IMG/VR virus record: IMGVR_UViG_3300032285_003957
Location: 1-64,000 of that record
Reading direction: 5' to 3' (one strand)
Length of the DNA: 64,000 nucleotides
Source of the DNA: a virus
Taxonomy: Duplodnaviria; Caudoviricetes
Of the stretch, positions 56,723-63,116 are shown piece by piece (the first letter of the stretch is position 1; each line of letters begins with the position of its first letter). A program made the translations under genes and the position numbers. The notes below the pieces were generated by a model that was not told where the DNA came from, ran no database searches, and was given only the letters and a program-made list of their open reading frames with translations.

Positions 56723-57119
56723 TGGTGGAGATGACGAGACTCGAACTCGTGTCTTTCCTGCTCAACAATAAATGACTACACGTTTATTACAACATTGTTT
56801 CTCAATGTTCCGAAATATCAGGTTTGATATATGTGAGAACCCTACCTGCAAACAACTTGGTCTTAGAATTATTTTAAACGAGCTCTAACCTGTCACCCGT
56901 ATATTGGACTTCTGTTCCTAGGTTAATGTCCTAATCGACCCGTGCATAGGAGGCTAACTTAGTTAGGCTGCTACTTTAGAAGTTGCAAGAATACCTGCAA
57001 TTTCCATGTTGTTGTAAACGTTGCCGTTTGAATTTTTCCACCGTAGATTTAAGTCATAGATGAAGTCTGACTACGTGCCATCTATCCCTGATACCTGAAA
57101 TCAATTCCAAAGCATCCCC
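56723..57119 (-). ncRNA. ssrA: tmRNA; tag (A)GNVYNNMEIAGILATSKVAA*
   Basis: 5' GGGGATG..GAATTGA; 3' T-arm GTTCGAGTC and CTCCACCA; tag ORF 57025-56963. Confidence 0.92.
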
Positions 57120-58931: not shown

Positions 58932-59003
58932 AAATTTTTTAGGATCGTATGGTTTTACATACAAACTTCCACCATTCAATTTTACTAAATTGAAAAAATA
59001 AAA

Positions 59004-59810
59004 CACTGAGAATACATGTCTTAACGAAACTCTTTAAAAGGATTATTTGATTCCCTTCGTTTCCACTAACTTTTGATTAGTAAGTTTCAGTCACGGCCAA
59101 TTAGATTAACCAATCCTTTCGCAATATCCTACTCTTTTAATACTCATTACTCATCAAATCTGCCGACCTGATTCAACCTTGCGGGTTTAGAGAACTTTCT
59201 CAAAAATCATATTGGGCTTGAGACCCTTTATGGCTGCGAACCCCTCGCAACTAAGTAGTGACCTATCGGACACTGCGGACGAACACTTTTTCTTGTTATA
59301 ATTTTAGTTGTTAAACCGCTATTAACAAAATTTAGTTTCCGAATTTGGGAAAGTAGTGGTTCGTCACCTAGCCAAGCCACCTTTTGAGCGACTCGATACT
59401 AAACTACTCTCTGTAACATCCCTGCTACCATATTTTTGGACTCCTTCAAAACTAAACCCTTGGTAGAGTTTAATAAAGGATGATAACAGCACCACCTGTT
59501 TTTCACCATACCTTTCGGTTTTAAGATTCCCATTATATTGAATCACGCAATGATATAGTCGGATAACTATACTTCTTACAATAACTCTATGGATTATTCT
59601 TATTGATGTTCCCATCTCAACCGAACAACTCGGATTGCTCGGTCATCAAACCACTTTCGCTACAGTGTTACCCTCACTACTTAAGGTTCAATGATATTCC
59701 ACTTGCCTACTCGAGCTCCATTACTGAAGCCGCAACTTACCCCAACCAAGGGTTTGTCACTTTATCCCACTTTCGTGGTTTATTTTAATCGACCATAGGC
59801 GGCCAATATT
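59004..59810 (-). ncRNA. large structured ncRNA, GOLLD-like (~800 nt)
   Basis: No credible ORF; many GNRA hairpins (CCAC-GAAA-GTGG, ACC-GAAA-GGT, CC-GCAA-GG); own -7 promoter and boxA; next to a tRNA array. Family assignment is from size and context only. Confidence 0.6.
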
Positions 59811-60162: not shown

Positions 60163-60624
60163 TTAAATCCTTACTAAATGATTTGCTGCGTATGTCATCA
60201 ACGCACCTAAATGTTTGTATCTAACTTTATAACCCATCCCTTCAACCATACCAACTGCTTGTCTTAAAACAGAATTAGATTTGAACTTAGGATCAGGATT
60301 TAAATCGATATCAATCCATTGAGGTTTTGGTAATCCATTTTCTTTTAGATATTCCGCAATTTCAATTGACTTCCAAACTTCCGCAAGCAATCTGTTCGGT
60401 GTATTTCTTTCCATAGGTTCGGTTTCACGCGTGCATAACACGTGAGCACCTTTACCTTTTACATAAAGAGCAATAACAACACCATAGATTGTTTTTTTAT
60501 TTCCATAACATTGGGAATCAGAGCCAATGAGAATTTCCACATTCTCTCTTGTTGCGACATACTCTCTTATGTAATCTATTACATTTGGAATTGGAGTTCC
60601 ATAGAGAGTTCTAAATTTTTTCAT
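60163..60624 (-). CDS. RNase H-like YkuK/DUF458 family protein
   Basis: ILIGSDSQ, RLLAEVWKS, IDIDLN, AANHL. Confidence 0.8.
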   Translation of the reverse strand: MKKFRTLYGTPIPNVIDYIREYVATRENVEILIGSDSQCYGNKKTIYGVVIALYVKGKGAHVLCTRETEPMERNTPNRLLAEVWKSIEIAEYLKENGLPKPQWIDIDLNPDPKFKSNSVLRQAVGMVEGMGYKVRYKHLGALMTYAANHLVRI

Positions 60625-60653: not shown

Positions 60654-60825
60654 CTGTGGTAGCAGGAGTCGAACCATGCAGGTGGAGATTCGATTAGTAA
60701 CAAAGCGCTTGCAAGCCGGTGGTCTACCCCGATATTACTAATCTATTTCTTTGTCCACGCCCGGGAGACAACCGGGTGCGTTTGCCGAGGCCATAACAGA
60801 GACAGCCAATTTTCGCCATACCACA
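60654..60825 (-). tRNA. enlarged tRNA-like RNA (172 nt), anticodon GTC (Asp-like), D-loop insertion and very long variable arm
   Basis: TGTGGTA/TACCACA acceptor; CCCGG-TTGTCTC-CCGGG arm; GGTTCGACTCC. Confidence 0.55.
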
Positions 60826-60886
60826 ATATAAGGACCCAGTACCTCTTATGCTTTCACTCACCTGAGTCCAACGTGAGATAAGGTTG

Positions 60887-60976
60887 CAGAGAGTGAGGGG
60901 TTCGAACCCTCGCGCCGATTTAACTCGACCTAACAGTTTAGCAAACTGCCCCCTTCACCAACTTGGGTAACTCTCT
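60887..60976 (-). tRNA. tRNA-Ser(GCT)
   Basis: Cloverleaf with long variable arm. Confidence 0.9.
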
Positions 60977-60977
60977 A

Positions 60978-61250
60978 TTAGTAGATGCTGTGTCTATCTT
61001 CTTCGTTTAATAACCCTTTACCAATATCAAACTTTTCAGCTCTTCTTTTTGCTTCTTCAGCTTCTTTAACCCAACGAATCCAAGTTAATGAAATATCAAT
61101 AGGTGCTAACACCCAAGCCATAACAATAACCATTATCGTGTCCAATTCTGCTGAATTTGAGGTTACACTTCCATCGTAGCGTTGTTTGTATTTACTAAAC
61201 AATTGATAAAAACAATACACAACGCAAATCAAATAATACGTAATTAACAT
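60978..61250 (-). CDS. small membrane protein inside the tRNA array
   Basis: Two TM segments, WVLAPID; start moved to MLIT. Confidence 0.7.
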   Translation of the reverse strand: MLITYYLICVVYCFYQLFSKYKQRYDGSVTSNSAELDTIMVIVMAWVLAPIDISLTWIRWVKEAEEAKRRAEKFDIGKGLLNEEDRHSIY

Positions 61251-61265
61251 AAATAAAAATTTAAG

Positions 61266-61337
61266 TTGTCCCCCAGGGAATCGAACCCCACTTATCCGGA
61301 CCAAAACCGGATGTAATAACCGATATACGAGAGGACA
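61266..61337 (-). tRNA. tRNA-Gln(TTG)
   Basis: TCCGG-TTTTGGT-CCGGA. Confidence 0.9.
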
Positions 61338-61416
61338 ATAATCTCAGGCATTCTACTTCCCGCAGCACGAAATTGTATCTTACTTAGCCCACCGTTAGCG
61401 GTATGGGAACCTGAGT

Positions 61417-61491
61417 TGGAGCAGATGAGAGGAATCGAACCTCCGTCTCCTACTTGGAAGGAAGGAGTAATGACCATTATACGACATCTGC
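61417..61491 (-). tRNA. tRNA-Gly(TCC)
   Basis: Cloverleaf, encoded CCA. Confidence 0.9.
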
Positions 61492-61590
61492 ATTCATAGC
61501 AGTTATGTGAGCGCCCAACTCACAATACCACTACGTTTTAATGGATGAAAAACATCTGCTTTTCTTTCGGACTTCCATTGGAGTCCCATG

Positions 61591-61662
61591 AGCTCAGTAA
61601 CAGACTCGAACTGTTGTCTAATGATTACAAATCACTTGTTCTACCGACTGAACTAACCGAGC
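61591..61662 (-). tRNA. tRNA-Thr(TGT)
   Basis: AGTGA-TTTGTAA-TCATT. Confidence 0.85.
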
Positions 61663-61785
61663 AATTATTGGAACTTTAGAAGGTATTCCAACTGATGGTT
61701 TATGACTTTACCACACCACGATTCGCGAGCTGTAAGACCCCAATCATTGATACTCTTCTAACGCTTACACTTCAAGTATCTAGTG

Positions 61786-61858
61786 AGCGGAAGACCAGGC
61801 TCGAACTGGCCACCCCGACCTTGGCAAGGTCGTGCTCTACCGAATGAGCTACTTCCGC
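61786..61858 (-). tRNA. tRNA-Gly(GCC)
   Basis: Canonical cloverleaf. Confidence 0.95.
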
Positions 61859-61864
61859 TTGTTG

Positions 61865-61936
61865 TAGTCTCTGAGAATTTTGAAATCCCGACCCTCTCCA
61901 TGTAAGGGAGATGCTCTTCCTCTGAGCTAAGAGACT
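61865..61936 (-). tRNA. tRNA-Val(TAC), atypical T-arm
   Basis: TCTCC-CTTACAT-GGAGA; T-arm GGGAT-TTCAAAA-TTCTC. Confidence 0.8.
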
Positions 61937-61937
61937 A

Positions 61938-62014
61938 TGGTGGACCAAACAGGGCTCGAACCTGTGACCTTGGCATTATGAGTGCCCTGCTCTAACCATC
62001 TGAGCTATAAGTCC
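61938..62014 (-). tRNA. tRNA with CAT anticodon (elongator Met or Ile2)
   Basis: GGCA-CTCATAA-TGCC; encoded CCA. Confidence 0.85.
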
Positions 62015-62021
62015 AATAAGG

Positions 62022-62127
62022 TGCCGAAGGAGGGATTTATACCCACACGCAGGTCATTTCGAACTCTGCTCCTTCTAGAATACAGCGCGTCTAACAGGTG
62101 GCCACCCGTCTATTCCGCCACTTCGGC
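62022..62127 (-). tRNA. enlarged Leu-like tRNA-like RNA (106 nt), D-loop hairpin insertion, anticodon ambiguous (CTA or TAG)
   Basis: GCCGAAG/CTTCGGC acceptor; weak anticodon stem; T-loop TATAAAT. Confidence 0.5.
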
Positions 62128-62132
62128 ATGTG

Positions 62133-62215
62133 TGAGAGTGGACGGATTCGAACCGCCGAAGTCTAAGACTCCTGATTTACAGTCAGGTGCCAATTACCGC
62201 ATTGACAACACTCCC
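62133..62215 (-). tRNA. tRNA-Tyr(GTA)
   Basis: CCTGA-CTGTAAA-TCAGG. Confidence 0.9.
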
Positions 62216-62220
62216 ATTTG

Positions 62221-62301
62221 TGACCAAGGAGAGATTCGAACTCTCACGACTTACGTCATTGGTTCCTAAGACCAACGTGTCTACCGTTCCACCACTCGGC
62301 C
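62221..62301 (-). tRNA. tRNA-Leu(TAG)
   Basis: TTGGT-CTTAGGA-ACCAA. Confidence 0.92.
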
Positions 62302-62308
62302 ATTGTTG

Positions 62309-62380
62309 CGCTGATGGAGAATTACGATATCTCAACCTATTGATTAACAGTCAATTGCTCTGCCGTTGAGCTACATCAGC
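62309..62380 (-). tRNA. tRNA-Asn(GTT), atypical T-arm
   Basis: ATTGA-CTGTTAA-TCAAT; T-arm GAGAT-ATCGTAA-TTCTC. Confidence 0.8.
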
Positions 62381-62385
62381 TTTTG

Positions 62386-62459
62386 TTGGGAATGCAGGAT
62401 TCGAACCTACGGCCTCTTGGTCCCAAACCAAGCGCGATACCGGACTACGCTAATTCCCA
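62386..62459 (-). tRNA. tRNA-Pro(TGG)
   Basis: CTTGG-TTTGGGA-CCAAG. Confidence 0.92.
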
Positions 62460-62465
62460 TTTTAG

Positions 62466-62539
62466 TGATTCCGTTTGGATTCGAACCAAAGACCCACATC
62501 TTAGAAGGATGTTGCTCTATCCAACTGAGCTACGGAACC
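62466..62539 (-). tRNA. tRNA-Arg(TCT)
   Basis: ACATC-CTTCTAA-GATGT. Confidence 0.92.
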
Positions 62540-62540
62540 A

Positions 62541-62975
62541 TTATTTAATATTTTTTGCTCGATATGTTTCCGTTTGTGAATGACAATTAGGACATAACAT
62601 TCTTAAATTTTCTAATTTATGATTTGTTCGATTCCCATCGATATGGTCTAATTCCATATTTAATTTTTTACCATTCCATTCTTCAATGTCACATATAAAA
62701 CATTTGTTTTCGATTATTTTTTCTTTTAATAATCTATTTTTTAATTTGAATGTTTGGAAATGTGGATGTTTACCTTCCAATATTTCCTGTAAATCTACTT
62801 TAGGTGGGACAATCTTATTTGTTCCTTTTCCTGATTGATTCGTTACGTAACAACCAAATTTAATTGCATACTTTTTAAAAGTATTAAAATGTAAATCTAA
62901 TTTACTTGCTGCTTCAGCCATTGATTTAGATTCTTGACAGATTTTTATAAAATCGTTTTGATTAAAATGTTTCAT
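62541..62975 (-). CDS. HNH endonuclease with N-terminal HTH, inside the tRNA array
   Basis: CFIC..ELDHIDG..NH..ENLRMLCPNCHSQT. Confidence 0.9.
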   Translation of the reverse strand: MKHFNQNDFIKICQESKSMAEAASKLDLHFNTFKKYAIKFGCYVTNQSGKGTNKIVPPKVDLQEILEGKHPHFQTFKLKNRLLKEKIIENKCFICDIEEWNGKKLNMELDHIDGNRTNHKLENLRMLCPNCHSQTETYRAKNIK

Positions 62976-63031
62976 ATTAATAAATATCATACACTTTAGA
63001 AAAAACCATTTTAGTGTCTATCTTTTTCATG

Positions 63032-63116
63032 TACTTCCGACCAGAATCGAACTGGTACGAACTTTCAGTTCATAGCATTTTAAGTGCTACGTGTCTACCA
63101 GTTCCACCACGGAAGC
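63032..63116 (-). tRNA. tRNA-Leu(TAA)
   Basis: TAGCA-CTTAAAA-TGCTA, long variable arm. Confidence 0.92.

Follow-up and report, generated by a model that had tools for sequence, protein, structure and literature searches.

A tRNA-shaped RNA of phage tRNA arrays and Bacteroidota chromosomes with candidate identity elements for AspRS and GatCAB

Introduction

What is a 172-nt, tRNA-shaped RNA doing at the end of a phage tRNA array? The element lies in the first 64 kb of a 234-kb record of a virus of the Caudoviricetes (IMGVR_UViG_3300032285_003957) that is ~70% complete; this stretch of 64,000 nucleotides is referred to here as the window. A first-pass annotation had read the element as an expanded tRNA, a decoy for anticodon nucleases or a tRNA-shaped scaffold. 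Every feature that it listed is present on the minus strand (Table 1), several of them in a form that differs from its description. It overlooked the identity elements for AspRS and GatCAB, and also that the tip of the variable arm is palindromic.

Results

A conserved RNA family missed by standard searches

The earlier expectation that tRNA scanners would miss an expanded tRNA or tRNA-shaped scaffold was borne out. Neither ARAGORN nor Rfam reports the element, Rfam even at E-values up to 10, and ARAGORN run with introns and a lowered threshold returned only noise. At 172 nt, the element exceeds the ~95-nt length of canonical elongator tRNAs and is not recognised by tRNA models (RF00005/ARAGORN), and no Rfam 15 family (tmRNA, Y RNA, GOLLD or others) matches it. 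No match was found by blastn against GenBank phages or by an exact search with the anticodon arm of the window copy. The first homologs, in ~20 phage loci, were reached through relatives of a neighbouring gene. Two pattern scans of viral contigs gave at least 154 distinct full-length phage copies of 130–176 nt, and a model of the family (R1) finds a single copy in the 234-kb record.

On its own, the minus strand of the window folds no better than shuffled sequence (z −0.9). It is covariation in 71 homologs, not single-sequence folding, that proves the structure. For these 71 copies, with a mean column identity of 58%, both the cloverleaf and the long arm emerge from RNAalifold without guidance. 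In the 45-pair structure, 94.7% of cells pair and 36 of the 45 pairs show compensatory changes; slid controls were 41–49% paired, and none of 500 shuffles reached the observed covariation. Decay without compensatory change, which the first-pass annotation had named as the finding that would count against it, was not seen in relatives. Selection maintains the element as a structured RNA. It is not a member of tRNA-Asp, tRNA-Asn, the class II tRNAs, the allo-tRNAs or any Rfam family, and we found no paper on the family in the open literature, that is, outside subscription journals.

Anatomy of the element

The cloverleaf is complete, with acceptor, D, anticodon and T arms. The acceptor stem is intact, as first described, with 7 bp that begin at U1-A72 and are followed by G73 in the window copy. 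Its acceptor branch is 7/5, as in all aligned copies, and not the 8/4, 9/3 or 8/5 of allo-tRNAs and tRNA-Sec. The D region is indeed of the Leu/Ser-like (class II) kind; the interruption put at about 19 nt is a hairpin of that length within a net insertion of 22 nt, and is optional, being absent from 66 of the 154 listed phage copies. The loop closed by the anticodon stem, CCCGG/CCGGG, has 7 nt and contains GUC; the pyrimidine noted at position 37 is U37.

The variable arm, estimated at ~80 nt, is exactly 80 nt long (60759-60680); across the family, arms range from ~45 to 125 nt and D-loop insertions from 9 to 27 nt. From its base, the arm consists of a 4-bp stem, a 4-nt bulge, a 3-bp stem, an AAUA/GAA internal loop, an 11-bp stem and a three-way junction. 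The basal GTGGA/TCCAC stem had been drawn with 5 bp; it has 4 bp and the bulge, and its U pairs with a later, covarying base (alignment columns 82/174). The AAUA/GAA internal loop is conserved and probably loop E-like. The GGGGUAGACCACC hairpin at the junction is present in 150 of 154 phage copies, a count partly fixed by the search pattern, and in 97 of 178 host copies. No group I/II intron core or splice motif matched the insertions in Rfam at E-values up to 10.

Two further points of the first-pass annotation hold for the window copy but say little about the family. The T-stem is bulged there, but in only 34 of the 154 listed phage copies. The element encodes no CCA, but this is the rule in these phages: CCA is encoded by one of the 13 tRNAs in the window and by 99 of 1016 tRNAs of related loci. 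The CCA end would have to be added post-transcriptionally.

Table 1. Positions of the element, its parts and its neighbours in the window
Feature	Position	Strand	Remarks
tRNA-shaped RNA gene, whole, U1 to G73	60654..60825	-	172 nt; 145 bits with the family's own model R1
Acceptor stem, 5ʹ strand, with U1 and G2	60819..60825	-	All 7 pairs covary
Acceptor stem, 3ʹ strand, and discriminator	60654..60661	-	G73 at 60654
Class II-type D arm	60778..60816	-	3-bp stem, G18G19, one extra base 20a, 22-nt insertion 5ʹ of G18
Hairpin within D-loop insertion	60789..60807	-	19 nt; non-palindromic in the window's subtype
Anticodon arm	60760..60776	-	GUC 60769-60767, U37 60766, C38 60765
Variable arm	60680..60759	-	80 nt; stems predicted unaided by RNAalifold; helices 4-6 compensatory
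Conserved GGGGUAGACCACC hairpin at the arm's junction	60718..60730	-	Bulged A
GCUUGCAAGC at the arm tip	60707..60716	-	Perfect 10-nt palindrome; candidate dimerisation element
T arm	60662..60679	-	Canonical T loop; bulged U at 60676
RNase H-like (PF04308) gene	60163..60624	-	Just downstream of the element
tRNA array, part in the window	60886..63116	-	13 tRNAs

Genomic context in the phage

The array comprises 25 tRNAs across the record, an ordinary tRNA-Asp(GUC) among them. The element, 60 nt beyond tRNA-Ser(GCT), closes its series of tRNA-shaped genes; then come the RNase H-like gene, GOLLD RNA and a tmRNA. An obligate link of the element to either of two neighbours was considered and rejected: some relatives have the RNase H-like gene without the element there and others the reverse, and element and GOLLD are each found without the other.

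The neighbourhood holds several other RNAs. The 3ʹ domain of GOLLD matches at 59003-59411 (minus strand; Rfam, 302.7 bits), and the 400 nt upstream of it (~59412-59800, minus) are probably the 5ʹ half. The tmRNA (56723-57119, minus), which has a terminal CCA, is matched by Rfam and missed by ARAGORN. Within the array are an ORF with a weak Pfam match to HNH endonucleases (62541-62990, minus) and structured-looking spacers at 60826-60885, 61340-61415, 61492-61589 and 61663-61784; the second of these recurs in related phages (loci L004, L006 and L008-L010). A second unannotated tRNA-shaped RNA, of ~108 nt, lies between tRNA-Tyr and tRNA-Met (62020-62127, minus) and has homologs in at least 12 phage loci. 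It has a 7-bp acceptor stem, a D-loop hairpin and a degenerate T loop, often with ACC next. A role as amber suppressor is unlikely, since the loop at the anticodon position is itself palindromic (UCUAGA, UUCGAA, CUAG). Two further oversized, unannotated tRNA-shaped elements of 141 and 130 nt occur in the same array beyond the window (G000:C1 65469-65609 and 65332-65461, both minus); they show compensatory changes and are conserved in a few related phages.

Identity elements for AspRS and GatCAB

The window copy has the whole AspRS set of G34, U35, C36, C38, G73 and G2-C71. Five of these (G73, G34, U35, C36 and C38) are the strong determinants of Asp identity (PMC9976931). It also has U1-A72, the determinant for bacterial GatCAB, which ignores the anticodon (PMC1635274). 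Among the 154 listed phage copies, U1-A72 is present in 152 and G2-C71 and G73 in 153 each, at positions that the search patterns did not fix, and C38 in 147. GUC occurs in 92 of the 93 copies from the pattern that left the loop free, the remaining one being a parser slip. The bacterial scan fixed GUCY and a 3ʹ CAG, and the conservation of those bases was counted in phage copies only.

The element departs from ordinary tRNAs at defined places. It lacks the G1-C72 of bacterial tRNA-Asp, and has GUC in place of the GUU of tRNA-Asn. Its D loop is not of the short kind without base 20a: throughout the family, G19 and the D stem are separated by one base more, and the window copy has the 22-nt insertion besides. 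Base 20a is a GatCAB antideterminant, causing a ~10-fold loss on tRNA-Asn, and tRNA-Asp with U1-A72 and U20a is ~100-fold less efficient (PMC1635274). The U33 and purine 37 of canonical elongator tRNAs are not kept either: at position 37, every one of the 92 unbiased phage copies has a pyrimidine (U or C), and at position 33 phages have U, C or A and hosts additionally G. Together with the 80-nt arm, these two positions indicate that the element is probably non-decoding. We propose that it unites addresses for AspRS and GatCAB and no longer has the loop bases of a decoder. Pairing of the GUC loop with GAC in the arm hairpin was rejected as the reason for GUC; no covariation was seen, and copies without the hairpin keep GUC.

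The ordinary tRNA-Asn genes of these phages keep U1-A72 in only 6 of 24 cases, and that in the window (62308-62380, minus) has G1-C72, like the majority in related phages. A tRNA-Asn with G1-C72 cannot use GatCAB well; hence, most phage tRNA-Asn would depend on AsnRS and free asparagine. This dependence and the U1-A72 that the element has kept fit a supply role in phages too.

Palindromes and D-loop hairpins of phage copies

Palindromes of at least 6 nt are found at 76 of 90 distinct phage arm tips, compared to 21% in shuffles and 11 of 88 host tips. The phage tips use eight central tetramers (UGCA, GGCC, CCGG, AGCU, CAUG, CGCG, CUAG and GUAC). For the 10-mer GCUUGCAAGC, the hairpin is worth −0.1 kcal/mol and the self-duplex −16.3 kcal/mol. 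The D-loop insertion is likewise a phage trait, with 88 of the 154 listed phage copies against ~2 of 178 host copies, and most of the 14–18-nt insertions of other phage copies are also palindromic. Self-complementarity that is kept while the sequence changes points to the pairing of two molecules rather than to a protein site. Together, the palindromic tips and D-loop hairpins suggest dimerisation.

In a rough tree (FastTree, 138 columns, midpoint root), 54 of 59 phage copies form a clade of their own; the tree shows no direction of transfer between phage and host. At least 95 of the 154 phage copies lie within 1 kb of tRNAs, in loci that are cut. No asnC was found near phage copies in the phage loci, and no gatB in three phage records. 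Asparagine makes up 6.9% of residues in phage ORFs and 5.4% in host loci, a weak difference that tracks A+T content.

Chromosomal copies in Bacteroidota

A pattern scan of bacterial genomes identified at least 120 chromosomal loci. The 80 that are named are essentially all from Bacteroidota, including Pedobacter, Chitinophaga, Spirosoma, Algoriphagus and Marivirga, and some loci have two or three tandem copies. ARAGORN and Rfam annotate none of the host copies. These genes stand alone, each with its own Bacteroidota TAnnTTTG promoter and a terminator behind. In ~80 of the 120 listed host loci, the upstream gene is divergent and encodes an AsnC-like regulator of the Lrp family, whose best PDB match is E. 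coli AsnC (7.5e-32, with 7e-20 for the next) and which scores below the NCBIfam equivalog cut-off. In E. coli, asnC is divergent from asnA, which encodes asparagine synthetase, and activates it when asparagine is low. In one Bacteroidia genome (G111), it is asnB that lies divergent from a related asnC, at the position that the RNA holds elsewhere. The family is real, conserved and uncatalogued, and its tie to asnC is solid even if the mechanism discussed below is wrong.

Two host copies have AUC in place of GUC. At one locus (L372; G139:C1 3852069-3852399), both tandem copies have UUC, the Glu type; the GatB of this genome is among the most diverged.

Gene content of genomes with and without the RNA

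The R1 model identified the RNA in 27 of 150 Bacteroidia genomes; this class-level sample was used since a sample of the phylum was too GatB-rich to inform. A 76-nt match in genome G238 was taken as an ordinary tRNA and left out. The unpublished genome G232 enters the tallies solely as a single genome without the RNA, and none of the conclusions depends on it.

All 27 RNA-positive genomes have an ortholog of AsnC, adjacent and divergent in 24; only six RNA-negative genomes have one, and four of those six have AsnA/AsnB. GatB is present in 27 of 27, against a background of 110 of 150. None of the 27 has an AsnA or AsnB equivalog, which 23 other genomes do. GlnRS and GatB occur together in 18 of the 150 genomes. 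All 18 also have AsnRS, so that GatCAB is not needed there for charging. Of these, 13 have the RNA, four have instead a GatB-AspRS fusion and one has neither; among GatB genomes without GlnRS, 14 of 92 carry the RNA. Fisher p-values of 3e-6 to 1e-2 (3e-24 for asnC) overstate these associations, because the genomes are phylogenetically non-independent.

In the fusions (G223:C47, G255:C8, G187:C19 and G283:C57; ~1110–1120 aa), GatB is joined to a second AspRS that bears the non-discriminating His motif, and the RNA is absent from all four genomes. From gene content, the fusion may be a protein solution to the same problem as the RNA. The His motif, which we take to mark a non-discriminating AspRS, is not decisive: housekeeping AspRS lacks it in genomes with and without the RNA alike. 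The motif does not separate the two groups, and we could not show that RNA-positive genomes are set apart by a discriminating AspRS. The idea that tRNA-Asn of RNA-positive hosts has lost U1-A72 proved false, as at least four of five keep it.

Discussion

What could be the function of a tRNA-shaped RNA that has kept a synthetase address and probably lost the means to decode? Based on sequence and gene content, we consider the RNA to be, probably, a non-decoding carrier for tRNA-dependent asparagine synthesis in Bacteroidota that has been taken up by large phages. The RNA would be processed like a tRNA and receive CCA. Host AspRS would charge it with aspartate through GUC, C38, G73 and G2:C71, and host GatCAB would amidate the aspartate to asparagine by virtue of U1-A72; these elements, and the genomic link to GatB, are seen directly. 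The pyrimidine at 37, the free position 33 and the giant arm would bar decoding, and we propose that asparagine is then freed, or handed on for AsnRS. In hosts, the gene arrangement suggests that AsnC turns the RNA on when asparagine runs low, in the way that asnA is activated by AsnC in E. coli. In the phage, expression from the tRNA array without asnC would raise the asparagine supply, and the palindromic tip, given its conserved self-complementarity, probably links copies into dimers or larger assemblies. The absence of AsnA/AsnB, the co-occurrence with AsnC and GatB and the split among genomes with GlnRS and GatB are the pattern that an asparagine carrier predicts.

Several observations weigh against an asparagine carrier. 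Base 20a is present, and the D-loop insertion of phage copies could be a further obstacle to GatCAB. The element also lacks G1-C72, the usual pair of bacterial tRNA-Asp and one that helps AspRS. Since host tRNA-Asn keeps U1-A72, a relaxed AspRS could serve without the RNA, and the AspRS His motif does not separate the groups. No copy is found in 79 GatB-positive genomes without AsnA/AsnB, and AsnRS was not found in 4 of the 27 RNA-positive genomes, which are drafts. Lastly, there are the UUC copies of one host and the two host copies with AUC.

Many of the same data would be expected of a regulatory or scaffold RNA of asparagine homeostasis, one that binds AspRS and GatCAB, to titrate them or to hold them together for tRNA-Asn, or whose charging state is the signal, with no net asparagine made on the RNA. 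Such an RNA, which we think unlikely, would have the same identity elements and genomic links; the conserved internal loop at the base of the arm, not obviously needed for catalysis at the 3ʹ end, and the RNA-positive genomes without detected AsnRS would also be explained. However, the full 7-bp acceptor stem, G73 and C74 are kept, as for a charged substrate, and that the RNA and AsnA/AsnB exclude each other, as do the RNA and the GatB-AspRS fusion, fits a role in supply.

The decoy for anticodon nucleases first suggested for this locus is not supported as the function of the family: a stand-alone chromosomal gene of Bacteroidota, tied to asnC and gatB, is not explained by a phage decoy. A secondary use of this kind in phages is possible. 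Phages might have turned the RNA into a multimerising mimic, either to soak up anticodon nucleases or other defences aimed at tRNAs or to sequester host AspRS or GatCAB. The mostly separate phage clade (54 of 59), with a different arm motif and with D-loop insertions and palindromes that hosts lack, is consistent with such a change of use, as are phage loci without asnC and the three records without gatB. Nonetheless, we consider it improbable as the main explanation, since U1-A72 and the full Asp set, needless for a nuclease decoy, are kept, U37 and the variable base 33 differ from the tRNA-Asp to be mimicked, and no link to defence was found.

It is considerably harder to see the element as an oversized working decoder, whether a tRNA-Asp for GAU/GAC or a mistranslator that brings Asn, Ser or Leu to Asp codons. 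The complete cloverleaf, 7-nt loop, canonical T loop and position in a tRNA array are those of a working tRNA, the long arm and G73 would suit SerRS, and engineered tRNAs with large inserts in the variable arm can translate. However, a pyrimidine at 37 in all 92 unbiased phage copies and a variable 33 contrast with near-universal U33 and R37, an ordinary tRNA-Asp(GUC) is encoded in the same genome, and the tie to asnC and gatB is left unexplained. That the element is a precursor whose insertions are spliced or cut out to leave a normal tRNA is very unlikely, for although the insertions sit in loops of an otherwise normal scaffold and an RNase H-like gene adjoins the element in this phage, the arm of ~45–125 nt has conserved internal motifs and no group I/II match, U37 would remain after removal, and host copies have no RNase H-like neighbour.

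If the RNA is an asparagine carrier, it represents a hitherto unrecognised class of tRNA-shaped RNA whose work lies in amino acid biosynthesis and not in decoding. The many Bacteroidota that have GatCAB, AsnRS and GlnRS but no asparagine synthetase would then be explained; the reason for GatCAB in such genomes was left open previously (PMC4206432). For phages, the RNA would count as an auxiliary metabolic gene that is noncoding. We tentatively suggest a bolder version, in which the RNA gene replaces asparagine synthetase in many Bacteroidota and has become, in their jumbo phages, an RNA-only auxiliary metabolic gene, the palindromic arms joining copies into dimers or larger multimers in which several acceptor ends are offered to AspRS and GatCAB. 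The family goes unseen by standard tRNA finders and Rfam in hundreds of genomes, and the phage-only palindromes are a small, easily tested natural candidate for RNA-only multimerisation.

How does the element compare to known RNAs? Plant virus tRNA-like structures and the staphylococcal non-proteinogenic tRNA-Gly have, like the element, kept synthetase identity and lost decoding features. These non-decoding aminoacylated RNAs serve replication or give an amino acid to the cell wall, whereas the link of the element is to amino acid biosynthesis. Bacterial tRNA-Asp(GUC) has G34, U35, C36, C38, G73 and G2-C71 in common with it, and differs in having G1-C72 rather than U1-A72, no pyrimidine 37 or variable 33 and no giant arm; the ordinary tRNA-Asp is encoded alongside. 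Class II tRNAs (Leu, Ser, Tyr and Sec) and allo-tRNAs (PMC5389517) share the 3-bp D stem, an A15:U48-type core, a helical variable arm and two unpaired bases before the T stem. In contrast to these, the arm of the element is four to six times longer and branched, the acceptor branch is 7/5 rather than 8/4 or 9/3, and the anticodon is that of Asp. The multimerising phage-associated RNAs GOLLD and ROOL are also found in tRNA arrays, GOLLD 1.2 kb from the element, and natural RNA oligomers are known to use palindromic pairing between molecules (PMC12990946). The element has no sequence or model match to these, is much smaller and is tRNA-shaped, and its multimerisation is a prediction.

By analogy, the element would work most like the tRNA-Asn of the indirect pathway, in which a non-discriminating AspRS and GatCAB act in succession in Thermus, Deinococcus and Bdellovibrio (PMC4206432, PMC1635274). 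Both have U1-A72 and G73, and both occur in genomes with GatCAB, AsnRS and often GlnRS and without AsnA/AsnB. The element differs in having GUC rather than GUU, a D arm of the class II type that is one base longer, a variable arm of 45–125 nt and a non-decoding loop. Furthermore, it is a separate gene, predicted to be under AsnC, and would let a discriminating AspRS feed GatCAB.
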